Assembly: GCA_964618495.1 (NCBI GenBank)
Contig: CAZUBE010000006.1
Span: 2,727 to 66,726 of the forward strand
From: an uncultured Brachymonas sp.
Lineage (GTDB): Bacteria > Pseudomonadota > Gammaproteobacteria > Burkholderiales > Burkholderiaceae_C
DNA: 64,000 nucleotides
Direction of reading: 5' to 3'
Under the pieces are notes generated by a model. It was not told where the DNA came from and ran no database searches. It worked only from the letters and a program-made list of their open reading frames with translations. The number at the start of each line of letters is the position of its first letter. Position 1 is the stretch's first letter. The position numbers and the translations under genes are program-made. Of this stretch, positions 4,897-22,236 are shown one piece after another.

Positions 4897-5058
4897 GGAA
4901 GCGCTGATTTATTGCAGTTTCGTATAAAAACGCAATCGCCCGTCATTCCCGCGTAGGCGGGAATCCACAGCTGCGCCAATATGCGGATGGATTCCCGCCT
5001 ACGCGGGAATGACGACTTTCTGATTTTTCTCTTGCATGAAGAATAAATCAACGCTTCC
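4897..5058 (+). mobile_element. MITE/REP-doublet element, copy A (complete)
   Basis: 17-bp TIRs GGAAGCGCTGATTTATT / AATAAATCAACGCTTCC, flanked by TTAA / CTAA. Internal inverted REP pair at 4941-4966 and 4989-5014 (CGTCATTCCCGCGTAGGCGGGAATCC). Confidence 0.88.
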
Positions 5059-8388: not shown

Positions 8389-9051
8389 ATGCTGGACCAA
8401 GAGGGCTTTCGCCCCAACGTCGGCATCATTTTGCTCAACCGTAAGAATCAGGTCTTCTGGGGCAAGCGTATCCGTACGCATAGCTGGCAGTTTCCACAAG
8501 GAGGCATAGACAGGGGCGAATCGCCTGAACAGGCTATGTTTCGCGAGCTGCACGAAGAAGTTGGTCTGCAACCGCACCATGTGCGCATTGTGGCCAGAAC
8601 CCGTGATTGGTTGCGCTATGAGGTGCCCGACCGCTACATTCGCCGCGACGCGCGCGGCCACTACAAAGGCCAAAAACAAATCTGGTACTTGCTGCAAATG
8701 CTGGGGCAAGACTGGGATTTGAACCTGCGCGCCACCAACCACCCCGAGTTTGACGCTTGGCGCTGGAACGACTACTGGGTGCCGCTAGACGTAGTCATCG
8801 AATTCAAACGCGGCGTGTACGAAATGGCGCTCACCGAGCTGGCGCGCTACGTGCCACGCCACGAATCGCGCAACCGCTACCTGCGCGCCAACCACAAAGG
8901 GCGCGAGCGCAACATGGAGCAAGAGCGCGAACCGTTTAGCCAACAGCTTTATGTGCCCAATGCCTTGCCACAAACGGCGCAGGCAGCTCCCCAGCTATTT
9001 GTGCCAGCAACGGCATTGCACTGCCCTTTGACTAAGGAAGAGCCCAAATGA
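8389..9051 (+). CDS. rppH: RNA pyrophosphohydrolase (Nudix) with C-terminal extension
   Basis: [24 protein letters not shown] and Nudix box RELHEEVG. Confidence 0.97.
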
Positions 9052-9581
9052 CATCTTTGCCAAACTGGCCGCGCCATGCTGTGCTTTGTCTGTCTAGCTG
9101 CTTGCTTGCAAGCGCAGCGCATGCACAACTGTTTTCAGACGCTGATACCCACTGGCGCGAAGGCGAAGTGCCCCAGCCCCCAGCCCTGAGCAGCAAAAAC
9201 ATGGTGCAGATCGACATGCCCTCTTACTCCGACTTGTTGGTAGGCGTGGATGTAGATAGCGTAAACGTTACCCCAAACGATGGCGTGGTGCGCTACGTTA
9301 CCGTGCTGCAAGGCGCTGATGGCTCGCTTTCGGCCTACTACCAAGGCGTGCATTGCGCCAACTACACGGGCCGCACTTACGCCCGCTACCGTTTTGATGC
9401 AAACCCGCCCGCATGGGAAAACATTGATGCCGAATGGCAAGAGTTGCGTGGAAGCAAAGCACGCTACGCCAATGCAGCCGCCCGTGCAGGCGCCTGCGAA
9501 AACTTTGTGCCCGCCAGCGACACCGCTACAGCCAAGCGCAACTACGCCAAAAACAGCAAGTGGACGGGCAAGCGGTTTTAA
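9048..9581 (+). CDS. CNP1-like family exported protein
   Basis: Signal peptide, W.E..VP.PP and DGVVRYV...G...YQGVHC pattern. ATGA-coupled to rppH, the usual Burkholderiales neighbour. Confidence 0.8.
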
Positions 9582-9583
9582 GC
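9495..9583 (+). repeat. 89-bp direct repeat, copy 1 (3' end of the CNP1-like gene)
   Basis: Identical to 10460-10548 at 88 of 89 positions (G9566 vs A10531). Confidence 0.97.
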
Positions 9584-9766
9584 TGCACCAACCTGAGACG
9601 CAGAGCCCCTGGCAATAAGTAGGAAAGAGTTCCAAACAGTCAGGATGCGCTACATATCAACTATACCAAATATGCCTAAAAGGTAATTTCAAGGCTTCCA
9701 TAGGGAGGCTTGAAAAATTTTAGTTACACACCAGAAAACACAAATTCAAACTATTTGGAGTTAAAC

Positions 9767-10430
9767 ATGAAAACATTTAACAATGAAAGATGTTATTATC
9801 TTGATACATTTAACTTATGGGAATGTCTAATTCGCCAAAAAAAGACAATAATCGCTGTATTTACTCTGGTGACAACAATCTCTATTATATATATTACAAG
9901 CCGCCCAACACTCTATCAAAGCCAAGCCAGCGTTATGATTGGAGAGCTGCTTTTTTTTTGAGACACAACCTATAGAAAGTCAAGAATCCATAAAATATCG
10001 CTACTCTACAGTTTTGGAAATAAGACCCATAAAAAATACACGCATTATAGAGGTCATATCCACATCAACAAACTCTGAAGAATCTAAGCATCAAGTAAAT
10101 AATACGATAGAAAAAATTATCAATGAACATGCGTCAATCTTTGATAAAAAAAGATCGGATTTTTTAAAATATGCCAATGAAATCTATAATAAAGACTTGG
10201 CCCCTAACAAAAAAAATATGCTCAACATGCTTGATTCGGCATCTTCTTCTAATGCAACACAGCAAATATCAGAAATAAGTACTACTGAATTTTATTATGG
10301 AGGAAATATTCGATCTAAACTCTCCATCGCCTTTGTATTAGGGCTTAGTCTTTCCCTTGTTTCTGCATTTTTAAAAGATTTTTTCGAAAGCAAAAAACTA
10401 TTTTCAAAAAATCAGTGTCGAATGGATTAA
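9767..10430 (+). pseudogene. Wzz/GumC-like polysaccharide chain-length-determinant gene, frameshifted at a T9 tract (pseudogene, phase-variable allele or sequencing error)
   Basis: RBS GGAG before ATG 9767. N-terminal TM followed by PTLYQSQASVMIG, and a C-terminal TM (IAFVLGLSLSLVSAFL). ORFs 9767-9961 and 9939-10430 fuse into 220 aa if T9 (9951-9959) is T8. About 30% GC in sampled lines. Confidence 0.7.
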
Positions 10431-10459
10431 ACTTTCAAGCCGTAACCCACGCATGTGCT

Positions 10460-10548
10460 TGCGAAAACTTTGTGCCCGCCAGCGACACCGCTACAGCCAA
10501 GCGCAACTACGCCAAAAACAGCAAGTGGACAGGCAAGCGGTTTTAAGC
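10460..10548 (+). repeat. 89-bp direct repeat, copy 2 (orphan duplicate of the CNP1-like 3' end)
   Basis: See copy 1. Runs directly into MITE copy B. Confidence 0.97.
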
Positions 10549-10707
10549 ACGCGCTGATTTGCGCCAGTTTCGTATAAGAACGCAATCGCTCGCCATTCAC
10601 GCGCAGGCGGGAATCTACAGCTATGCCCCTTATACGGATGGATTCCCGCCTGCGCGGGAATGACGGCTTTCTGAACTCTTTCTTGTAAAAAATAAATCGG
10701 CGTTTCT
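10547..10707 (+). mobile_element. MITE/REP-doublet element, copy B (complete, degenerate TIRs)
   Basis: Arms homologous to copy A; REPs at 10591-10616 and 10640-10665. TTAA on both sides (10543-46, 10708-11). Confidence 0.85.
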
Positions 10708-10756
10708 TTAAGAGGTTTTGTTTTTATTTTACGTTATATATACAACTGAGGGCTGT

Positions 10757-11518
10757 ATGGAAGTAATCTTATTAATAGTTGCTGCTTTTGTGGCCATCTT
10801 GGTTTTTGCCATTAATATTGATGACAAAAAACATAAAAGTGAAAAACAAAAAGTTGAAAAATTAACGCAAACAGTAGAACATATTGAGTCTATCATTCTC
10901 CCGCATGCCCGAACGCTTGCCATCAAATGGGATCAGCTGCCCTATAAAGATGATTACGGGAATTACATCTTTGATGATTGGGATAGAGAAGTCGAATATT
11001 TTATTACCAGTGTACTCCTGCAAGATGATGTGGCACGCCAGTTTTTAAATTCAGGGAATTTTGATGTTGATAACCAACGTCTTGCCACTGTAAGGGAAAT
11101 GGTGTCTGATATAGCTCACAAAGAAACTGAAAGAATGCTTGATGCAGCTTCAGATGAATATCTCGACGTTGATACTCTGACAGGCGAAGAATATGAGCGC
11201 TATTGCGCCTCTCTATTGAACAAACACGGATGGGATGCAAACCCCACAACGGCAACGGGCGATCAAGGCATAGACATTATCGGAAAAATAAATGGCATTA
11301 CTGCTGTTTTTCAATGCAAAAGATATTCGCAACCAGTTGGCAATGCCGCAGTGCAAGAAGTAATTGCTGGAAAAACTTTTGCACAAGCCCAATATGCAGC
11401 CGTTGTAAGCAACAGCACGTTTACAAAATCTGCCAGACAATTAGCCGATACAGCCAATGTATATTTACTGCACCATTCAGAACTTGAAGAATTTGCTGAA
11501 ATGATTTTGCCAAAATAA
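10757..11518 (+). CDS. Membrane-anchored Mrr-like (PD-(D/E)xK) restriction endonuclease domain protein
   Basis: GAGGG RBS. N-terminal hydrophobic helix (VILLIVAAFVAILVFAI). C-terminal EEYERYCASLL...GDQGIDII...FQCKRYSQPVGNAAVQEV...SNSTFTKSARQLA is the Mrr catalytic-domain pattern. AT-rich. Confidence 0.85.
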   Translation: MEVILLIVAAFVAILVFAINIDDKKHKSEKQKVEKLTQTVEHIESIILPHARTLAIKWDQLPYKDDYGNYIFDDWDREVEYFITSVLLQDDVARQFLNSGNFDVDNQRLATVREMVSDIAHKETERMLDAASDEYLDVDTLTGEEYERYCASLLNKHGWDANPTTATGDQGIDIIGKINGITAVFQCKRYSQPVGNAAVQEVIAGKTFAQAQYAAVVSNSTFTKSARQLADTANVYLLHHSELEEFAEMILPK

Positions 11519-11526
11519 TAATTTCG

Positions 11527-11665
11527 GGATGCGCTAACTTGTTTTTCATGCAAGAAAAAGCTCCGCACGTTGTCATTCCCGCGCAGGCGGGAATCTACTC
11601 GCATAAGGGGCGCAGCTGTGGATTCCCGCCTGCGCGGGAATGACGGTTTTCTGCATTCTTTCTTA
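11527..11665 (-). mobile_element. MITE/REP-doublet element, copy C (inverted, hybrid, one end truncated)
   Basis: Reverse-complement right arm at 11527-11570, REP doublet at about 11572-11644 with an inverted spacer, then a truncated forward right arm. Confidence 0.8.
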
Positions 11666-11797
11666 ACTGTGCGGATGTGCAAGTCACCCGCGCTATGTCT
11701 CCCACGCTACGCTTGCTGACCCAACTCACAGGCCTATGAACGATGCTGCAAGCTAGCTTCTTGCCAAGCCATACCCAAGCGGCACGCACCCCACCGA

Positions 11798-12484
11798 TTA
11801 CACCAACGGCATTAACCCACTTTGCGCCATAGAGGTGGTACGGCCTTGCGCCACGATGAGGTGGTCGAGCACGGCTATTTCTAGCAAGCCCAGTGCTTGT
11901 TGCAAGTGGCGGGTAAGGGCTATATCGGCAGATGAAGGCTCGGCGCAGCCGCTGGGGTGGTTGTGAGCCAGTAGCACGCTGGCGGCGTGGTGGTGCAGGG
12001 CGCGGCGGGCTACTTCGCGGGGGTAGACGCTGGTTTGGTTGAGGGTGCCGGTAAAGAGTGTTTCCATGCAGATAAGCTGGTGCTGGGAGTCGAGAAACAG
12101 CACGGCAAAACACTCGTGTGGCAAGTGTGCAAGGTGCATTTGCGCGTATTGGGCGGCAAGCTCGGGCTGGTTAAGGTGGGGGCGCTGTTGCATTTGCTGG
12201 GTGATGGCACGGCGAGCCAGCTCCATTACGGCTAATAGCTCAGCGCGTTTGGCTGTGCCGCCCAGCCCTTTGATGTTTTTGAGTTGCTCGGCGCTGGCAT
12301 TGAGCAAACCCGCCATGCCGCCGCAGTGCTCAAGCACTTCTTGCGCCATGATGAGGACGTTGCGGCCTGCTGTGCCTGTGCGTAGCAGCAAGGCGAGTAG
12401 CTCGGCATCGCTCAGCGCCGCTGCGCCGCGTGCCAGCAGTTTTTCGCGTGGCATGGCTTCTGTGGGGATGTGTTTGATTGCCAT
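11798..12484 (-). CDS. radC: RadC-family JAB/MPN domain protein
   Basis: [32 protein letters not shown] and AHNHPSG...PSSAD...LDHLIV. Confidence 0.95.
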
Positions 12485-12545
12485 AGTTAAAACCCGTTTT
12501 ACCAAATCTTCGCCAGATGTTTACCAGATGTTTGCTCAATGGCTA

Positions 12546-13031
12546 TTAGCCGCCCTTGGCATTGGCACTGCCCGCAAAGCCGCATTGCCGCCATGCTTCA
12601 AACACGACTACGGCTACGGCGTTTGACAAATTGAGACTGCGCTGCTCGGGAAGCATGGGCAGGCGCAGGCGCTGCGCGGGGGCAATGCTTTCGCGCACTG
12701 CGGGCGGCAAGCCAGCGCTTTCGCGGCCAAACAGCAACCAGTCGCCAGGCTGGAAACAGGTTTGGTGCACATGCTGCTGGCCTTTGGTGGTGAGGGCAAA
12801 CAGGCGCTGCGGGTTGGGTTGGGCAGTATCGAGAAAAGCCTGCCAGTTGGCGTGCCGCTGTACGCTGGCGTATTCGTGGTAGTCAAGACCAGCGCGGCGC
12901 ATTTGCTTGTCTTGCATGTCAAAGCCCAAGGGTTCTATCAAGTGCAGGGTGCAGCCCGTGTTGGCCGCAAGGCGAATGATGTTGCCGGTATTGGGCGGTA
13001 TTTCCGGCTGGTAGAGGATGATGTTAAACAT
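12546..13031 (-). CDS. trmL: tRNA (cytidine/uridine-34 2'-O)-methyltransferase (SPOUT)
   Basis: EIPPNTGNIIRL, RRAGLDYHE, FGRESAGLP and RSLNLSNAVAV. Confidence 0.97.
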   Translation of the reverse strand: MFNIILYQPEIPPNTGNIIRLAANTGCTLHLIEPLGFDMQDKQMRRAGLDYHEYASVQRHANWQAFLDTAQPNPQRLFALTTKGQQHVHQTCFQPGDWLLFGRESAGLPPAVRESIAPAQRLRLPMLPEQRSLNLSNAVAVVVFEAWRQCGFAGSANAKGG

Positions 13032-13121
13032 GGTGCGGCGCAGTGTAGCGCGTGTGCAGTGCTTATGGGCGCGTATGGGTGCGTGTGATTCCGATTCCAG
13101 ACAAAAAATGCACTAGATTTC

Positions 13122-13149
13122 CGTCATTTCCGCTTAGGCGGGAATGACG
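13122..13149. repeat. Collapsed single REP palindrome, copy D (remnant)
   Basis: CGTCATTTCCGCTTAGGCGGGAATGACG, with weak left-arm-like sequence upstream. Confidence 0.75.
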
Positions 13150-13294
13150 CTATGTGCGTAAAGCAAGGCTCTGCGCGGGGATAGCAGTTATTGTTTTTGA
13201 AGGTGGAAATGGAATAAGTGGCGTGCATGCGCTGCACGCGGCTGCCTTGTAGCCATGTGCTGGCTTGGGGCTGCCGCAAGGCGCTATCACAGCT

Positions 13295-14173
13295 TTAGGC
13301 CAGTGCGCGTTTACGCAACTCCATCATGCGCCAGACAAAGGGCGTAAAGATGAGCTGCATGGCGAGCTCCATTTTGCCGCCGGGTACAACGATGGTGTTG
13401 GCACGGCTCATGTAGCTGTCATGAATCATCGAAAGCAGATAGGGGAAGTCGATGCCTTTGGGGTTGGCAAAGCGGATAACAACCATGCTTTCGTCAGCGC
13501 TGGGGATGTCTTTAGCGATGAAGGGGTTGGAAGTATCAACCACCGGCACGCGCTGGAAATTGACGTGCGTACGCGAGAATTGCGGGCAGATGACGTTTAC
13601 ATAGTCGGGCATGCGACGCAGAATGGTGTCGGTTACGGCTTCGCTGCTGTAGCCGCGCAGTTTTTGGTCGCGCCAGAGTTTTTGTATCCACTCAAGGTTG
13701 ATGACAGGTACTACACCAATCAGCAAATCGGGGTATTGGGCGATGTTGATTTCTGGCGTGACGACACCACCATGCAGGCCTTCGTAGAAGAGGATGTCGG
13801 TATCTGCAGGCAGGTCTTGCCACTCGGTAAAGGTGCCGGGCTCTTGCTTGTAGGGTGCGGCTTCGCCAGCGTCGTGCAGGTAGCGGCGCGCCCTGCCCTG
13901 CCCAGTTTCGGCGTAAGAGGCAAACAGGGCTTGCAATTCGTCAAGCAGGTTGTTGTCCAGACCAAAATGGCTGAAGTGTGCATTGCCCTGCTGCTCGGCC
14001 TGCGCCTGCATGACCTTCATTTCCTTGCGGTTGTAGCGGTGAAAGCTGTCGCCTTCGATATTGGCCGCTTTGACTCCTTCGCGATTAAAAATGCCCGCAA
14101 AGGTGCGCGTAACGGTAGTTGTGCCTGCACCAGAAGAACCTGTGATGGCAATGATGGGGTGACGTTCAGACAT
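13295..14173 (-). CDS. prk: Phosphoribulokinase (class I, proteobacterial)
   Basis: IIAITGSSGAGTTT, EGDSFHRY, FYEGLHG and DTILRRMPDYV. Confidence 0.98.
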   Translation of the reverse strand: MSERHPIIAITGSSGAGTTTVTRTFAGIFNREGVKAANIEGDSFHRYNRKEMKVMQAQAEQQGNAHFSHFGLDNNLLDELQALFASYAETGQGRARRYLHDAGEAAPYKQEPGTFTEWQDLPADTDILFYEGLHGGVVTPEINIAQYPDLLIGVVPVINLEWIQKLWRDQKLRGYSSEAVTDTILRRMPDYVNVICPQFSRTHVNFQRVPVVDTSNPFIAKDIPSADESMVVIRFANPKGIDFPYLLSMIHDSYMSRANTIVVPGGKMELAMQLIFTPFVWRMMELRKRALA

Positions 14174-14241
14174 GGTTCGGTGTCCTTATGGAATGGTTAA
14201 AAAAACGTGTAGCACCTGCCCCAAAAGCAGGTTGCTGTGTA

Positions 14242-15363
14242 TCAGTGCCTAAACAGGCCGCGCTGTGCAAACAGCGGGTTGTGCAGCTCACATTGCGATT
14301 TTTCAGTGTGGTAGCGCTCAATACGCTCCACTTCATTTTTTGAGCCAAACACCAGCCCGATGCGTTGATGCAGCGATTCGGGCTGCACTTGCAAAATAGG
14401 GCAACGGCCTGTAGAGGCACGGCCACCAGCCTGCTCGATGATGAAGCCGATCGGGTTGGCCTCGTAGAGCAGGCGCAGACGGCCGGGTTTGCAGGGGTCT
14501 TTGGTGTCGCGCGGGTACATGAATACGCCGCCACGCATCAAAATACGATGCGCTTCAGCCACCATGCTGGCAATCCACCGCATATTGAAGTCTTTGCCGC
14601 GTGTGCCGGTTTTGCCTGCCAGACATTCATCTACATAGCGTTTAACGGGCGCTTCCCAAAAGCGGGCATTGCTGGCGTTGATGGCAAATTCTTGTGTATC
14701 GGGCGGTATGACCATATTGGGGTGGGTGAGCATGAACTGGCTCAGGTTGGGGTCAAGTGTGAAGCCGACCACGCCACGCCCCACGCTTAAGACCAGCATG
14801 GTGGTGGGGCCATACAGGGCGTAGCCTGCAGCAACCTGCTCGCAGCCGGGCTGCAAAAAGTCGGCAGCTACTACGTCGCGGCCGCTGTCAATCACTTCTT
14901 GCGGGGCGCGCAGAACCGAGAAGATACTGCCTACGGTAACGTTTACGTCGATATTGCTGGAGCCATCAAGCGGATCAAATACCAGCAGGTATTTACCACG
15001 TACCTGTCCTTCTGGGATTTGGTAGGGGTGCTCCATTTCTTCAGATGCCATGCCTGCCAAATGACCGCCCCAGTCGTTCATTTGGGTGAAGTATTCGTTG
15101 CTGATGACATCAAGCTCTTTTTGCTCTTCGCCCTGTATATTGACACCCGTTTGCACACAGTCTATGCCAGCAGTGGCATCCATGCTATTGATGGGCTGCC
15201 CGGGCATGGCGCCCAGCTTGCCAAAGGCGACCGCACGCGAAATGGCTTTGCAGGCCAGAGCCACATCGTGCATCAAGGCGTTAAAGGTACCGCTGGCATG
15301 TGGAAAGTGCTTGCGGTTATCAATCAAGTATTGCGTAAAAGTAATGCGGCGGTGCAGTGGCAT
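14242..15363 (-). CDS. fbp: Fructose-1,6-bisphosphatase class 1 (CbbF type)
   Basis: [34 protein letters not shown] and [11 protein letters not shown]. Confidence 0.97.
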
Positions 15364-15448
15364 GGCGGGCTTTCTGGGACAAGGTTAAAAAACTTTGGCA
15401 GCTTGCAACAGAGCTGTAGATACGGGCGCAGGTACGCGGCAAACGGGC

Positions 15449-16150
15449 TTATGCCGCAGCAGGCGCGGCGGCTGCTTGGCGCAACGACTGCATGACGGAG
15501 CGGTAACCACCATCAGCATCGGGGGCGCCAAACACAGCACTGCCGGCAACAAAGGTATCTGCACCAGCGGCAGCTATTGCGCCGATATTGCTGACCTTGA
15601 CGCCGCCATCGACTTCCAGCCAGATGGGCTGACCACCATCGGCCATATAGGCATCAATGCGGCGGCGCGCCTCGCGCAGCTTGGGCAAAGCGCTGGGTAT
15701 GAACGATTGGCCACCAAAGCCCGGGTTGACGCTCATCAGCAGCACAATATCGAGCTTGTCCATGATGTGATCCATCCACTGCAAGGGGCTGGCAGGGGTG
15801 AGCACAATGCCTGCCTTGCAGCCGTGGTCGCGTATCAGTTGCAGTGTGCGGTCAACATGGCGGCTGGCTTCAGGGTGAAAGGTGATGATGTTGGCACCAG
15901 CCTTGGCAAACATGGGGATAAGGCTATCGACAGGCTCAACCATCAGGTGCACATCAATAGGAATTTGCACATGCGGACGGATGGCCTCACACACCAAGGG
16001 GCCGATGGTAAGGTTGGGCACGTAGTGGTTGTCCATCACATCAAAATGCACCAGATCACAACCAGCAGCTTCAATGGCACGCACTTCTTCGCCCAAGCGG
16101 GCAAAATCGGCAGAGAGGATAGAGGGTGCAAGGCGGACAGGTTGGTTCAT
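15449..16150 (-). CDS. rpe: Ribulose-phosphate 3-epimerase
   Basis: [40 protein letters not shown] and EVDGG. Confidence 0.98.
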
Positions 16151-16211
16151 GGTGAATAAAAGACAGACGAAAGTTAAAAAAGGCCAAAAACAATCAACGG
16201 CAACTATGGCA

Positions 16212-16946
16212 TCATGCTGCGGGCTCTGGCAAAGGCTCTGCCTCATGCCAAGCACGCAATTGCTCAAGCGTTACGCCAGCAAGACTGGGCAACACCCGCA
16301 AAGCGCCTGTAAAGTCATGCTTAACAGTAAAACGGTTGCAAGTCACTACCGTGTGCAAGCCTGCAGCCAGAGCAGATCTCAGGCCGTTGGCCGAATCTTC
16401 AAATGCCAAGCAGGCACTGGCAGGCAATTTAAGCTGTGCCAATGTTTGCAGGTAAACCTGCGGATGCGGTTTTTTGTGCGGCGCAGTACTGGCATCTTCA
16501 ATCACTGCAAAATTCTCCTGCCACGCTTCGCCCAAGGCATGGCGCAACAAAGCCACAATGTTGACAGGCGATGTGGTGGTAGCAATGGCCAGCGTCAAGC
16601 CGGCAGCACGTGCCTCTTGCAACAAATCAAGTGCGCCGATACGCAGTTTCACCTCGCCTTGCTGTACAGCCTGCTCGTAATACGCTGTTTTTATGGAGTG
16701 CAGTCGCAATACCGTATCTCGCACACCTGCGCCCAAATCAACCAAATCAGGCTGAATGCTTTTCCAGTAATGCAAGATACGCTCTTTGCCGCCTGATATT
16801 TCAAGCAGCTTGGTGTATTCAGTTTCGCTCCAGTGCCAGTCCAGACCTTCTTCGGCGAAGGCCTGATTGAAAGCGGCCAGATGCGCTGACTCAGTGTCTG
16901 CCAAGGTGCCGTCTACGTCAAAAATAAGTGCCTGTAACATGGACAT
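16212..16946 (-). CDS. cbbY: CbbY HAD-family phosphatase
   Basis: [27 protein letters not shown] and FEDS; located in the cbb cluster. Confidence 0.9.
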
Positions 16947-17088
16947 GGTATTGCTGAATAAGAAAAAAATTGTGATTTAAAACGTGGCGTGCATTGCTTA
17001 CCTACACGGTACCAACTGTAGTTGGGTAAAATCATCAAAACAAGTCATGTTTTCTATTTTATACATCAATAATTTCTGATACTTAATA

Positions 17089-18000
17089 GTGCGCAACTAC
17101 ACCTTAAAGCAAATTCAGACCTTTATTGAGGTAACCCGCCAAGGCTCTGTATCTAAAGCGGCCGAGAAACTGTGCGTAACGCAACCAGCCGTTTCCATGC
17201 ATATTCGCCAGCTTGAAGAGGCTTTTGGTGTAGCCCTGTTTGAAGCACAAGGCAGAGGTATCAGGCTCACCGATGCTGGGCGCACTTTTGCAGGACGCGC
17301 CATTACGGTAATGGCCGAGCTGCACGAACTCGAATCGCTGATGGCGGAATATGCCGGCGCAAAAAAAGGCCGTATCGCGCTAGCAGTTGTGAGCACAGCC
17401 AAGTATTTTGTTCCCATGCTGCTGGTACGCTTTGCACGCCTGTACCCGGATATTGACGTAGTGCTGCACATCGAAAACCGCGAAAGCGTACTGGGCTTGC
17501 TTGAGCGCAGCGAAGCCGATCTGGTCATCATGGGGCGTGCGCCGCGCAACATAACGACCGAGGCCGTAGCTTTTGCTACCAACCCCATGGGCATTATTGC
17601 GGCTCCCACCCATGCCCTGGCCACACGCAAAAACCTGCCATTTTCCGCAATGGCAGACTATGCTTTTGTCATGCGCGAATCGGGCTCGGGCACACGCGCC
17701 GCCATGGAGCGCCTGTTTGCCCAGCATGAAGTGCCGCTGAAAGTGGCTATGGAAATGCCCAGCAACGAAACCATCAAGCAAGCTGTGATGGCAGGCATGG
17801 GCTTGAGCTTTCTATCCATGCGCACGGTACGCCAAGAGCTGGCTGGCGGTCATCTGGTTCAGCTTGATATCAACGGCATGCCTATCATTGGCCAATGGTT
17901 TGTTACCCATATGGCAAGTAAAACGCTTTCGCCTGCTGCGCGTGCATTCAAGGCCTTTCTTATCGAGCAAGGTGGCGCATTGATGGACTCGTTTATATAA
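17089..18000 (+). CDS. cbbR: LysR-type Calvin-cycle regulator CbbR
   Basis: GTG start, LysR HTH (SKAAEKLCVTQPAVS), STAKYFVP, RESGSGTR and SNETIKQAVMAGMG. Confidence 0.93.
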   Translation: MRNYTLKQIQTFIEVTRQGSVSKAAEKLCVTQPAVSMHIRQLEEAFGVALFEAQGRGIRLTDAGRTFAGRAITVMAELHELESLMAEYAGAKKGRIALAVVSTAKYFVPMLLVRFARLYPDIDVVLHIENRESVLGLLERSEADLVIMGRAPRNITTEAVAFATNPMGIIAAPTHALATRKNLPFSAMADYAFVMRESGSGTRAAMERLFAQHEVPLKVAMEMPSNETIKQAVMAGMGLSFLSMRTVRQELAGGHLVQLDINGMPIIGQWFVTHMASKTLSPAARAFKAFLIEQGGALMDSFI

Positions 18001-18001
18001 A

Positions 18002-18041
18002 TAAAAAGTGATGATTTGCGCTGCAGAATAAATTTATCTGA
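18002..18041 (+). promoter_or_regulatory. Putative CbbR (LysR T-N11-A) boxes upstream of cbbM
   Basis: TAA-N7-TGA at 18002-18014 and again at 18029-18041. Confidence 0.5.
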
Positions 18042-18110
18042 TAGGTAAGACTGGTTACAGTAGCGGCAGATTCACTCACCCCCCAACCATGCAGACAAAG
18101 GAGATACTCC

Positions 18111-19490
18111 ATGGATCAATCCCAACGCTACGCCGACCTGAGCCTGAAAGAAGCAGACCTGATCGCAGGTGGCCGCCATATTCTGTGTGCCTACAAAATG
18201 AAACCCAAAAGCGGCAGCTATCTGGAAGCAGCAGCCCACTTTGCGGCTGAATCATCCACTGGCACCAACGTAGAAGTCTCCACCACCGACGACTTCACCA
18301 AAGGCGTAGATGCGCTGGTTTACTACATTGACGAAGCCAGCGAAGACATGCGCATTGCCTACCCGCTAGACTTGTTTGACCGCAACATGATTGATGGCCG
18401 CATGATGCTGGCCAGCTTCCTGACGCTGACCATTGGCAACAACCAAGGCATGGGCGATATCGAGCACGCCAAGATGATTGATTTCTACATGCCTCGCCGC
18501 GCCATTGAGCTATTTGACGGCCCCGCCAAAGACATTTCTGACTTGTGGCGCATTCTGGGTCGCCCCGTGAAAGACGGCGGCTACATCAGCGGCACCATCA
18601 TCAAGCCCAAGCTGGGCTTGCGCCCCGAGCCGTTTGCCAAGGCGGCTTATGAATTTTGGCTGGGTGGCGACTTCATCAAAAACGACGAACCACAAGGCAA
18701 CCAGGTTTTTGCCCCCATGAAAAAAACCATCCCGCTGGTAGCCGATGCCATGAAGCGCGCCATGGATGAAACTGGCGAAGCCAAGCTTTTTTCTGCCAAT
18801 ATCACCGCCGACGACCACTACGAAATGCTGGCACGCGGCGAATTTATTCTCGAAGCCTTTGGCGCAGATGCCGACAAAGTGGCATTTCTGGTTGATGGCT
18901 ACGTAGGCGGCCCAGGCATGATTACCACTGCGCGGCGCAACTTCCCCAACCAATACCTGCACTACCACCGCGCAGGCCACGGCGCTGTAACCAGCCCCAG
19001 CAGCAAGCGCGGCTACACCGCCTATGTACTGGCCAAAATGAGCCGTCTGCAAGGGGCAAGCGGCATCCACGTCGGCACTATGGGCTACGGCAAGATGGAA
19101 GGCGAGAAAGACGACCGCGCCATTGCCTACATCATCGAGCGCGACAGCTACACCGGCCCCATCTACCACCAAGAATGGTACGGCATGAAGCCCACCACCC
19201 CCATCATCAGCGGCGGCATGAATGCACTGCGCCTGCCCGGTTTCTTCCAGAATCTGGGGCATGGCAACGTGATTAACACCGCTGGCGGCGGCAGCTACGG
19301 CCACATCGACAGCCCCGCAGCAGGCGCACGCTCACTACGCCAAGCCTACGAATGCTGGAAAGCAGGCGCAGACCCCATCGCATGGGCCAAACAGCACCGC
19401 GAATTTGCCCGCGCCTTTGCCAGCTTCCCCGCTGATGCCGACAAGCTCTACCCCGGCTGGCGCGAGCAACTGGGCGCTGCAGCGCAATAA
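18111..19490 (+). CDS. cbbM: RuBisCO form II large subunit
   Basis: [10 protein letters not shown] start, [20 protein letters not shown] (carbamylated Lys motif), HYHRAGHG and SGGMN; 459 aa; no small-subunit gene. Confidence 0.98.
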
Positions 19491-19531
19491 ACGCCGCGAA
19501 AACCGCTCAAGCCGCTAAAACCAAAAGCTTA

Positions 19532-19695
19532 GAAGGCGCTGGTTTATTCCAGCTTCAGATAAAAATGCCATAGCCCGTCATTCCCGCGCAGGCGGGAATC
19601 CACGGCTGCGCTTCTTATTGCAATGGATTCCCGCCTGCGCGGGAATGACAACATGCTGCGTTTTTCTCTTGCATGAAAAACAAATCAGCGCCTCC
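19532..19695 (+). mobile_element. MITE/REP-doublet element, copy E (complete, second arm subtype)
   Basis: GAAGGCGCTGGTTTATT ... AACAAATCAGCGCCTCC followed by CTAA. REPs at 19576-19601 and 19625-19650. Confidence 0.88.
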
Positions 19696-19722
19696 CTAAA
19701 AAGCCAAGGCGCAATGACAAAT

Positions 19723-19756
19723 ACGGGAATGGACGCAACGTTCACTCCCGTTTTTT
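19723..19756 (+). terminator. Probable intrinsic terminator downstream of cbbM
   Basis: ACGGGAATGGAC / GTTCACTCCCGT imperfect stem followed by a T run. Confidence 0.55.
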
Positions 19757-19947
19757 GCATATCGGCTCTGTAGCCAACCAGCAACCACACCAGCAGCCAA
19801 AAATCACCCAAACAGACACCGTTTTGTCACGCATTGGCAACTCTAAGCCGTATGATGCAAGTGTGGCTGGTAGCACGCCAAATCAGGCTTGCCCGCATCT
19901 GCCCGTTTAAAACCATCCCTTTTTGCCTACTTCTGTGGAGACTGGCC

Positions 19948-22236
19948 TTGAAATTTCGCTTCCCCATAGTCATCATCGACGAAGATTACCGCACCGAAAA
20001 CACCTCGGGCTTTGGCATACGCGCCTTGGCAGAAGCCATAAAAGAAGAAGGCTTCGAGGTGCTTGGCGTAACCAGCTATGGCGACTTGAGCCAGTTTGCC
20101 CAGCAGCAAAGCCGCGCCAGCGCGTTTATCTTGGCGATTGATGACGACGAATTCAGCCCAGGCCCCGAGATGGACCCAGCCGTGCTCAACCTGAGCACCT
20201 TCATCGAAGAAGTGCGCCGCAAAAACCCCGATGTGCCCATCTACATCTACGGCGAAACCAAAACCAGCCAGCACTTGCCCAACGACATTTTGCGCGAGCT
20301 GCACGGCTTTATCCACATGTTCGAGGACACGCCCGAATTTGTGGCGCGTCACATCATCCGCGAGGCAAAAACCTACCTTGAAGGCATACAGCCGCCGTTT
20401 TTCAAAGCCCTGCTCGATTACGCCGAAGACGGCTCATACTCATGGCACTGCCCCGGGCACTCGGGCGGCGTGGCGTTCCTCAAAAGCCCCATCGGGCAGA
20501 TGTACCACCAGTTTTACGGCGAAAACATGCTCCGCGCCGACGTGTGCAATGCCGTAGAAGAACTCGGCCAGTTGCTTGACCACAACGGCGCTATTGGCGA
20601 AAGCGAGCGCAACGCCGCCCGCATATTCAATTCAGACCACTGCTTTTTCGTCACCAACGGCACCAGCACCAGCAACAAAATCGTGTGGCACCACACCGTA
20701 GCCCCTGGCGACGTGGTGGTGGTAGACCGCAACTGCCACAAATCCATCCTGCACAGCATCATCATGACGGGTGCAATTCCCGTATTTTTAAAACCCACGC
20801 GCAACCACTACGGCATCATCGGCCCCATACCCAAAAGCGAATTTGAGCCAGCCAAAATCCGCGCAAAAATCCGTGCCAACCCGCTGCTCAAAGGCGTAGA
20901 CGCTCAAACCATCAAGCCGCGCGTGCTCACGCTCACGCAATCCACCTACGACGGCGTGCTCTACAACACCGAAACCATCAAAAAAATGCTCGACGGCTAC
21001 GTTGAAAACCTGCATTTTGACGAAGCATGGCTGCCGCACGCAGCCTTTCACCCGTTCTACGGCACGTTTCACGCCATGGGCAGAAAGCGCCCACGGCCTA
21101 AAAAATCGGTGGTCTACTCCACCCAATCCATCCACAAGCTGCTCGCGGGCATCAGCCAAGCCAGCCATGTGCTGGTGCAAAACTCGCAAACCACCAAGCT
21201 CGACCGCCACCTGTTTAACGAGTCTTACCTCATGCACACCAGCACCAGCCCACAATACAGCATCATTGCCAGTTGCGACGTGGCCGCTGCCATGATGGAG
21301 CCACCCGCAGGCACATCGCTGGTTGAAGAAAGCATTGCCGAAGCGCTCGATTTTCGCCGCGCCATGCGCAAAGTAGATGACGACTTTGGCAAAGACGACT
21401 GGTGGTTTCAAGTCTGGGGCCCAGACAAACTCGCCGAAGACGGCCTAGGCCGTGCCGAAGACTGGATTTTGAAAGTAGGCTCCAGCCGCAGCGCCAACTG
21501 GCACGGCTTTGGCAACCTGGCAGCGGGCTTTAACATGCTCGACCCCATCAAATCCACCATCGTCACCCCCGGGCTGAATATGGACGGGCGCTTTGCCAAA
21601 ACGGGCATACCCGCCAGCATCGTGAGCAAATACCTCACTGAAAACGGCGTAGTCGTTGAAAAAACTGGCCTCTACAGCTTCTTCATCATGTTTACCATCG
21701 GCATCACCAAAGGCCGCTGGAACACACTCGTCACCGCCCTGCAGCAGTTTAAAGACGACTACGACAAAAACCAGCCCCTGCGCCGCATCATGCCCGAATT
21801 TTGCGAGCAAATGTCGCGCCGCCCGGGTGGCAACCGCTACGAAGGCATGGGCTTGCGCGATATGTGCCAAATGGTGCACCAAATGTACGCCCGCCACGAC
21901 ATAGCACGGCTCACCACCGAAATGTACCTAAGCGACCTCACCCCCGCCATGCGCCCCGCAGACGCTTACGCAGCCATCGCCCGCCGCGAAACCGAGCGCG
22001 TACCCATCGACCAGCTCGAAGGCCGCATCACCACCAGCCTAGTCACGCCCTACCCGCCAGGCATACCGCTGCTCATCCCAGGCGAAGTCTTCAACAAAAA
22101 AATCGTGGACTACCTTAAATTCTCGCGCAACCTCTCCAAAGAATGCCCGGGCTTTGAAACCGACATCCACGGTTTGGTTGAAGAAGTTGATAGCGACGGC
22201 AAAGTATCGTACTTTGCCGATTGCGTAAAAGAATAA
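19948..22236 (+). CDS. Arginine/lysine/ornithine decarboxylase (fold type I, wing domain)
   Basis: TTG start MKFRFPIVIIDED, WHCPGHSGG, VTNGTSTSN, DRNCHKS, HFDEAW and PLP motif TQSIHK. Substrate cannot be assigned from sequence. Confidence 0.95.
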   Translation: MKFRFPIVIIDEDYRTENTSGFGIRALAEAIKEEGFEVLGVTSYGDLSQFAQQQSRASAFILAIDDDEFSPGPEMDPAVLNLSTFIEEVRRKNPDVPIYIYGETKTSQHLPNDILRELHGFIHMFEDTPEFVARHIIREAKTYLEGIQPPFFKALLDYAEDGSYSWHCPGHSGGVAFLKSPIGQMYHQFYGENMLRADVCNAVEELGQLLDHNGAIGESERNAARIFNSDHCFFVTNGTSTSNKIVWHHTVAPGDVVVVDRNCHKSILHSIIMTGAIPVFLKPTRNHYGIIGPIPKSEFEPAKIRAKIRANPLLKGVDAQTIKPRVLTLTQSTYDGVLYNTETIKKMLDGYVENLHFDEAWLPHAAFHPFYGTFHAMGRKRPRPKKSVVYSTQSIHKLLAGISQASHVLVQNSQTTKLDRHLFNESYLMHTSTSPQYSIIASCDVAAAMMEPPAGTSLVEESIAEALDFRRAMRKVDDDFGKDDWWFQVWGPDKLAEDGLGRAEDWILKVGSSRSANWHGFGNLAAGFNMLDPIKSTIVTPGLNMDGRFAKTGIPASIVSKYLTENGVVVEKTGLYSFFIMFTIGITKGRWNTLVTALQQFKDDYDKNQPLRRIMPEFCEQMSRRPGGNRYEGMGLRDMCQMVHQMYARHDIARLTTEMYLSDLTPAMRPADAYAAIARRETERVPIDQLEGRITTSLVTPYPPGIPLLIPGEVFNKKIVDYLKFSRNLSKECPGFETDIHGLVEEVDSDGKVSYFADCVKE

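Follow-up and report, generated by a model that had tools for sequence, protein, structure and literature searches.

The locus described here has its closest counterparts in Neisseria. It lies in a 64,000-nucleotide stretch of DNA from an uncultured Brachymonas sp. (contig CAZUBE010000006.1, positions 2,727 to 66,726; called the window below) and consists of a gene for a membrane-anchored Mrr-type nuclease, held between two repeat units, B and C, in the interval between a CNP1-like gene and radC. Minimal mobile elements in Neisseria were reportedly described by Saunders and Snyder in 2002. For the nuclease, a further point of comparison is the Zorya system, in which ZorAB, a membrane sensor with a peptidoglycan-binding domain, is combined with ZorD, an Mrr-like nuclease effector. 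The drg endonuclease cassette of Neisseria, inserted at leuS/dam, has a GC content of 40.5% in a genome of 52% (PMC4269198, PMC3898611, PMC1797815), and drg itself is a low-GC, stand-alone, methyl-dependent endonuclease (PMC4269198). The dRS3/NTS/SRM repeats and the NIMEs are the targets of the Ssn GIY-YIG single-strand nucleases (Chenal et al. 2025, PMC11893778). In N. meningitidis, an NTS-gene-NTS layout lowers the replacement of the enclosed gene by transformation, via SsnA cleavage (PMC11893778).

The Brachymonas locus matches the definition of a minimal mobile element (PMC3898611, PMC1797815). Like those of Neisseria, it is a site between two conserved genes, which holds differing whole-gene cassettes in different strains and has no mobility gene. 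Its cargo resembles drg in being a low-GC, stand-alone nuclease gene without a methylase. In contrast to the Neisseria elements, the host is a Comamonadaceae-type Brachymonas in which no uptake sequence was detected, two slots are stacked, with ~100 nt from the CNP1 3' end duplicated around the first, and exchange by transformation is here presumed. The best overall explanation, to which we give a probability of about 0.6, is a slot of the minimal-mobile-element type that carries a foreign, membrane-tethered nuclease gene, with members of a genome-wide repeat family as its boundaries.

The assembly of this sewage Brachymonas is a metagenome-assembled genome (MAG) of 1.92 Mb in 53 contigs, with a GC content of 0.54. 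Proteins encoded around the locus are 57-98% identical to those of Brachymonas MAGs, and the 10-nt Neisseria uptake sequence occurs only twice in the assembly, so that Neisseria contamination is not the source. On the left, the variable site is bounded by the conserved CNP1-like gene (9048-9581, plus strand; Pfam CNP1, E 4.5e-23). On the right, it is bounded by radC (11798-12505, minus strand; Pfam RadC, E 2e-44), which is convergent with the nuclease gene and present in 13 of the 14 genomes of the genus Brachymonas. CNP1 and radC are also convergent neighbours in four other Brachymonas species, where they are 72-449 bp apart with no repeat between them.

Alternative cargo was found at this site when haplotypes were compared among public metagenome contigs. 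The sister lineage (contig L085, 100% identical to the CNP1 contig of the closest relative, L013, and 99.95% identical to its radC contig) has a repeat-free, 906-bp cassette of GC 0.40 between CNP1 and radC, encoding a 210-aa lipoprotein. Homology between the two lineages ends inside the CNP1 stop codon (TTTTA/A versus TTTTA/G, the break at the stroke) and resumes at ~11791, at the radC stop. Since homology breaks at both stop codons, the whole intergenic segment is the unit of exchange. It includes a 132-bp spacer (11666-11797) to the right of repeat C, without a counterpart in the sister lineage. The second slot is thus occupied by the nuclease gene with its repeats, by the lipoprotein cassette, or by nothing. 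Between 9582 and 11797, open reading frames (ORFs) and Pfam show only the wzz-like and Mrr-like genes, with no integrase or transposase. The 2.2 kb between the convergent CNP1 and radC is a strain-variable cargo site, and whole intergenic cassettes would be swapped by homologous recombination in the conserved flanks, with no dedicated mobility gene. This route is preferred because the sister cargo is repeat-free and ends at the flanking stop codons. The preliminary description of the locus had proposed that the gene is delivered or exchanged through the repeats, a proposal that the repeat-free sister cargo speaks against; the effect of the NTS-gene-NTS layout in N. meningitidis is the opposite of such a delivery.

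The sister lipoprotein (L085:4001-4633 and L059:2238-2870) has the lipobox LAGC and a gene of GC 0.40, and is very common in public metagenomes, with a listing in 582 index blocks. It has no match in Pfam, NCBIfam or PHROGs. Degraded copies of the CNP1 3' end at the cassette ends, which would have pointed to a common insertion mechanism, were sought by local alignment and rejected, the scores being at the level of shuffled sequences.

The first slot lies upstream of repeat B and holds a wzz-like cassette (9584-10445, plus strand; Pfam Wzz; GC 0.30-0.37) with an ORF at 9767-10430. It is enclosed by a direct repeat. Copy 1 (9481-9583, plus strand) is the true 3' end of CNP1, 103 nt long and 94% identical to copy 2, with a nearly identical core of 89 nt. 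Copy 2 (10446-10548, plus strand) aligns as a fragment of the CNP1 3' end, the TAA stop codon of which overlaps the terminus of repeat B. The wzz-like ORF is frameshifted here by a T9 tract (9951-9959); six independent metagenome contigs have T8 and an intact ORF of 220 aa, a difference that is either phase variation or an assembly error. The cassette is missing from at least four contigs (L022, L026, L058 and L065), in which CNP1 runs straight into repeat B and only one copy of the CNP1 end is present; other contigs of this lineage agree with the window. Its presence or absence varies among contigs with identical CNP1 and Mrr proteins. The ~100-nt duplication is consistent with either a single-crossover insertion or a deletion between the repeats. 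The two-slot hot spot between CNP1 and radC that had been proposed from the window was thus borne out by the strain comparison.

Along the window, nucleotide identity to the sister lineage varies between 76 and 98%. Compared with L042/L085, positions 11800-20300 show 91% in radC, 84% from trmL to fbp, and 91% and 98% in further blocks. These swings between adjacent genes indicate mosaic recombination across the Calvin-cycle gene cluster, as expected if recombination is frequent, and they would fit cassettes that are taken up as DNA and recombined through their flanks.

The cargo of the second slot is the nuclease gene (10757-11518, plus strand; 253 aa; PD-(D/E)xK nuclease of the Mrr_cat type). 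It begins with ATG, 4 nt after a Shine-Dalgarno sequence (GAGGG, 10748-10752) that can be read in an AT-rich leader of 45 nt (10712-10756, plus strand), and it ends with a double TAA. No match to a strict sigma-70 promoter was found in the leader. The GC content between repeats B and C is 0.39, compared with 0.55-0.60 in the flanks. This confirms an AT-rich, stand-alone gene tightly placed between the repeats, as first described, and the spacings given then (49 bp and 8 bp) were right to within a few bases. An identical protein is encoded on 21 public metagenome contigs, and radC adjoins the gene wherever the contig extends that far. The gene is absent from the 13 congeners and from 47 further relatives (60 in all). 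It is foreign, horizontally acquired, accessory and stand-alone.

In the protein, residues 3-21 form a transmembrane (TM) helix, a long helix extends to residue 60, and a conserved middle domain (~45-135) precedes the nuclease (139-250). The TM segment is strongly hydrophobic (mean Kyte-Doolittle value 3.2) and leads into the K-rich segment DDKKHKSEKQK. Pfam Mrr_cat covers residues 139-245 with an E-value of 5e-23. The N-terminal TM helix and the C-terminal Mrr-type nuclease domain of the preliminary description were both recovered, the latter by this search with hidden Markov models. The motif GDQGID...FQCK is present, and an alignment of 38 homologues shows no variation at E147, D169, D173, Q186 and K188. 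In the AlphaFold model (pLDDT, the predicted local distance difference test, of 93.9), a helix at 2-60 is followed by a small hairpin-and-helix domain and by another long helix, which precedes the alpha/beta nuclease at the C-terminus; the best Foldseek matches of this model are AF1548, MspJI, EcoT38I, AspBHI and archaeal Hjc. The Pfam match, the unvarying positions and the predicted fold concur in an Mrr-type PD-(D/E)xK nuclease with an intact E..D..QxK site. A PHROGs search gave matches to the nuclease domain only, and a profile search of the PDB gave only a weak match to AF1548. No curated family exists for the protein in NCBIfam.

In its catalytic domain, D...QxK motif and fold, and in having no cognate methyltransferase, the protein is similar to the type IV enzymes E. 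coli Mrr, MspJI and AspBHI. No methyltransferase was found in the ORFs or by Pfam in the 2.2-kb CNP1-radC insert, in agreement with what had been read from the window. Unlike these enzymes, it has neither an Mrr_N nor an SRA-like reader, and carries instead a TM helix, a coiled stalk and an uncharacterised domain of ~90 aa. Pfam gave no match to an Mrr_N winged helix or an SRA-like reader domain; the N-terminal half is made of the TM helix, the long helix and the unassigned domain. As a modified-base reader is lacking, the term "Mrr-like" applies to the catalytic domain only, and a specificity for modified DNA is unsupported.

The nuclease belongs to a large family. A profile search over 1.84 billion representatives returned 5,086 family proteins at E<=1e-30, a threshold that demands the middle domain plus the nuclease, with the family counted as clusters at 50% identity. 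A word-index search with the middle domain alone found two proteins only. In longer members of the family, a signal peptide and a periplasmic domain come first; a single TM helix with basic residues after it follows, then the middle domain in one to three copies, and finally the nuclease. The periplasmic domains include PG_binding_1 (in P0217) and Sel1 repeats (in P0230). Because the longer members place a periplasmic domain before the TM helix and the module after it, the nuclease is predicted to be cytoplasmic. The Brachymonas protein would accordingly be arranged as a single N-terminal helix in the inner membrane, then a long cytoplasmic helix and the conserved ~90-aa domain, and its C-terminal Mrr/MspJI-type nuclease domain would face the cytoplasm and might cut DNA near the inner membrane. 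It appears as the minimal form of the family, with only two residues predicted outside the membrane. The architecture of the longer members suggests an envelope-linked effector.

The comparison with PADLOC models gave matches to the nuclease domain only, the best being to the C-terminus of ZorD (2e-17), followed by PDC-S02 (1e-10) and LmuA. In this match, and in the joining of a periplasmic peptidoglycan-binding domain, a TM helix and a nuclease in its longer relatives, the family is similar to Zorya. Unlike Zorya, the Brachymonas protein is a single polypeptide, without a ZorA/B motor and without a helicase; the likeness is one of concept and of one domain.

A defence role is plausible and is proposed from the genomic context. 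Close homologues (45-61% identity) are found in an integrase/AlpA island with GmrSD, in a DUF927-primase island, and with ParE/Phd and Fic neighbours. More distant ones (33-38% identity) are plasmid-borne: in Acinetobacter they lie between toxin-antitoxin modules, in E. coli on an IncFIB plasmid and in Zymomonas on a plasmid of 4.5 kb. The protein would most likely serve to restrict DNA that enters the cell, be it of phage or plasmid origin or taken up by transformation, with no methyltransferase as a partner. Defence, or a broader restriction of incoming DNA, is nevertheless held as the role of the gene only tentatively, with the odds against it.

Several observations weigh against the account given so far. 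The mechanism of exchange is deduced from the cassette boundaries only, and no uptake sequence is over-represented in the genome. One contig (L059), in which CNP1-wzz of this lineage is joined to the lipoprotein and radC of the sister lineage, is either a true recombinant or an assembly chimera across the identical 89-nt segment. The search with PADLOC models, one of the checks that had been proposed, gave no full-length match, and the partner genes are absent. In the wider family, chromosomal and syntenic copies are frequent: the gene keeps its synteny in 13 of 16 Methylobacterium species and is located near purEK in both Pseudomonas and Azoarcus, which is more like a stable chromosomal function. 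For 38 diverse homologues from 38 genera, housekeeping genes make up most of the four nearest neighbours. Matches to PADLOC models are no commoner among these neighbours than in a control set several genes away; as the control set scored as many matches as the neighbours, this test is informative in neither direction.

The same observations feed the strongest of the alternatives, namely that the nuclease is not an immunity gene, serving instead in membrane-proximal DNA processing (repair, segregation or the handling of transforming DNA) or being a selfish passenger, so that its place in the slot is incidental. The Methylobacterium synteny, the purEK-linked copies in two bacterial classes, and the housekeeping neighbours with no excess of defence-model matches are all in its favour, as is the breadth of a stable family with so many representatives. 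However, the closest relatives of the Brachymonas copy are found on plasmids, in integrase islands and between toxin-antitoxin modules. The Brachymonas copy is strain- and lineage-specific and compositionally foreign, and the periplasmic, sensor-like domains of the longer members fit a triggered effector. We consider this alternative possible but rather doubtful.

The triggered effector can be extended into a more specific model. The combination of TM helix, middle domain and Mrr_cat might mark out a very large family of single-polypeptide "envelope-to-DNA" effectors, so far uncharacterised, in which an envelope signal, for instance an adsorbing or injecting phage, would activate a cytoplasmic nuclease tethered at the site of entry. 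The Brachymonas gene would then be a sensor-less minimal form, kept as swappable cargo. This model is speculative and rather unlikely.

Of the repeats at both ends of the nuclease gene, unit B (about 10543-10711) is a complete mosaic element of ~156 bp with terminal inverted repeats, and its NTS/dRS3 arms are found at 10591-10618 (plus) and 10638-10665 (minus). Unit C (about 11519-11665) has NTS/dRS3 arms at 11571-11598 (plus) and 11618-11645 (minus), of the same type on both sides; its right arm is cut short, so that the outer terminal repeat is missing. Around the nuclease gene, all four arms match the published 28-nt NTS at 25-27 of 28 positions. Over 117 nt, B and C are 78% complementary, and neither is the best match of the other: the best other copies in the genome show 80-88% identity, with 81% for B. 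Copy C had been described as inverted. This is correct for the 27-nt loop and the left arm, but the dRS3 arms and the right flank are in direct orientation with respect to B.

Both units are predicted to fold into strong RNA hairpins with stems of 27-29 bp (B, -52.8 kcal/mol, z -4.2; C, -72.1 kcal/mol, z -7.4). Unit C is followed by a U-rich tail, 8 nt after the nuclease stop codon, suggesting a terminator or a 3'-stabiliser. B and C would probably be transcript boundaries, with a terminator after the nuclease gene and, on its other side, an insulation from CNP1/wzz. Were the cell to contain an Ssn-type nuclease, the two units would also modulate recombination at the locus. Rfam gave only sub-threshold chance matches to the hairpins. 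A half-site similar to that of XerC/D (dif) was noted in a repeat arm (TTTCGTATAA), with the XerD half missing, and was taken as a coincidence.

Both units belong to a family that is spread over the genome. The core of a unit is an inverted pair of 20-nt palindromes, ATTCCCGC-N4-GCGGGAAT, 27 nt apart. Twelve core motifs are present in the window, where 0.03 would be expected by chance, and the family sites lie at 4945-5010, 10591-10665, 11571-11645, 13121-13148, 19580-19646, 22429, 23344 and 57517. In the genome, 146 motifs (<=2 mismatches) are grouped in about 92 units, with 54 doublets, and the hairpin in its 28-nt, oriented form, CGTCATTCCCGCGMAVGCGGGAATCYRG, is present 52 times with <=1 mismatch and 113 times with <=3. 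The complete units (n=15) are 153-164 bp long, with the terminal inverted repeats (TTAAGGAA)GCGCTGATTTATTC. Pieces of dRS3 are the most over-represented 12-mers of the genome. Exact cores number 97 here and 92 in the closest relative, compared with 0-1 in the other 12 congeners. The dRS3/NTS family is thus expanded in this Brachymonas lineage and its closest relative, and absent from the other 12 species of the genus.

The 20-nt core is identical to the Nf1-type dRS3 of Neisseria, ATTCCCRCCTRCGCGGRAAK (PMC3898611). As with the dRS3/NTS repeats, those of Brachymonas are intergenic and mosaic, with arms, loops and loop orientations freely combined among units, as in the mosaic elements of Neisseria, and the NTS-gene-NTS layout is found here as well. 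They differ in that the motif occurs as inverted doublets within ~156-bp units that have terminal inverted repeats of their own. A further difference from the NTS/Ssn system is that a small Ssn gene was not detected in either Brachymonas MAG: by PF01541, no small Ssn-type GIY-YIG gene is present here or in the sister genome, both of which are incomplete MAGs. The PF01541 matches were uvrC and a 306-aa GIY-YIG/DUF4357 gene here, and uvrC only in the sister genome. A repeat doublet lies ~70 nt from the end of the 306-aa gene (contig C9, ~51.1-52.1 kb; L088:770-1827), which is not a small Ssn of the canonical kind but is the sole GIY-YIG candidate in the assembly other than UvrC.

Twenty-three pairs of units are less than 4 kb apart. 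They enclose housekeeping genes of ordinary GC, among them aroB, rlmB and a large amino-acid decarboxylase gene, as well as a pilin and an O-antigen-ligase-like gene. Since such pairs enclose housekeeping genes, bracketing is a general property of the repeat family. On contig C3 (~127.3-133.4 kb), the genes of a 138-aa type IV pilin and of an O-antigen-ligase-like membrane protein of 579 aa, with GC 0.45-0.50, are each bracketed by repeats, which recalls the repeat-embedded pilin loci of Neisseria. Empty sites in the sister genome were also compared for target duplications of the repeat units; one falls in an N gap and the other has diverged.

The repeats themselves vary in the population. At 13121-13148, in the trmL-prk spacer, the window has a single hybrid dRS3; in two contigs (L019 and L022), the complete inverted doublet is present together with its 27-nt loop. 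The difference is a population-level collapse or expansion of the hairpin unit. Such changes enter into a second alternative, a site-specific insertion at dRS3/NTS, in which a 980-bp circle made of the nuclease gene and one hybrid unit would have entered, by recombination, a repeat unit already resident between CNP1 and radC. From B to C, the dRS3 arms recur in direct orientation at a spacing of exactly 980 bp, and dividing the units at the arms yields one standard resident element and one symmetric element. Rearrangement at the level of dRS3 is seen in the population, both in the hybrid and doublet forms and in loops of both orientations, and an insertion at dRS3 has been proposed in publications for the array-flanked genes of Neisseria (PMC1797815, PMC3898611). 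Against this, no recombinase for such an insertion was found, an IS110/Piv-type transposase being absent. An "empty" haplotype with a single unit was not seen among the contigs, which break inside the repeat, and the sister lineage, with the repeat family throughout its genome, has none in the CNP1-radC slot. The insertion of a circle is judged improbable. Contig L025, in which repeat C is joined to another locus (C15), was considered as a rearranged haplotype and discarded as an assembly chimera, with a coverage of 0.8x and a junction in an identical core of 67 bp.

The weakest alternative is that of the preliminary description, in which B and C are the ends of a minimal composite transposon that carries the nuclease gene as a mobile unit between sites, and although the packing of the gene between two repeats of the same family (at 45 and ~0-8 bp) and the full elements with terminal inverted repeats like those of miniature inverted-repeat transposable elements would favour it, this very improbable reading is largely refuted and the flanking units are not transposon ends of the nuclease gene: their mutual complementarity and their identity to other copies are those of old, diverged units and not of recent twins, C is without its outer terminal repeat, no target-site duplication was seen at 10543 and 11665, the gene is single-copy in the genome and has one context in the 21 contigs, a search of the 53-contig MAG for the IS110-type transposase (PF01548), the sole transposase family searched, gave no match, core genes are bracketed by the same repeats, and homologues of the nuclease occur in other organisms without such repeats.

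All components of the locus are of known kinds, namely a slot of the minimal-mobile-element type, NTS/dRS3 repeats and an Mrr_cat nuclease; the family of membrane-tethered nucleases, for its part, is unstudied. The slot of minimal-mobile-element type with its repeat boundaries indicates that the genome plasticity known from Neisseria, with cassette slots and dRS3/NTS hairpins beside variable genes, is also found in an unrelated betaproteobacterium from sewage, where the population data provide four haplotypes of a single slot. For annotation, it is a caution that a tight bracketing by repeats need not mean a transposon when the repeats form a genome-wide family. The membrane-tethered Mrr-type nucleases are a large family and a reasonable candidate for restriction by a single gene.

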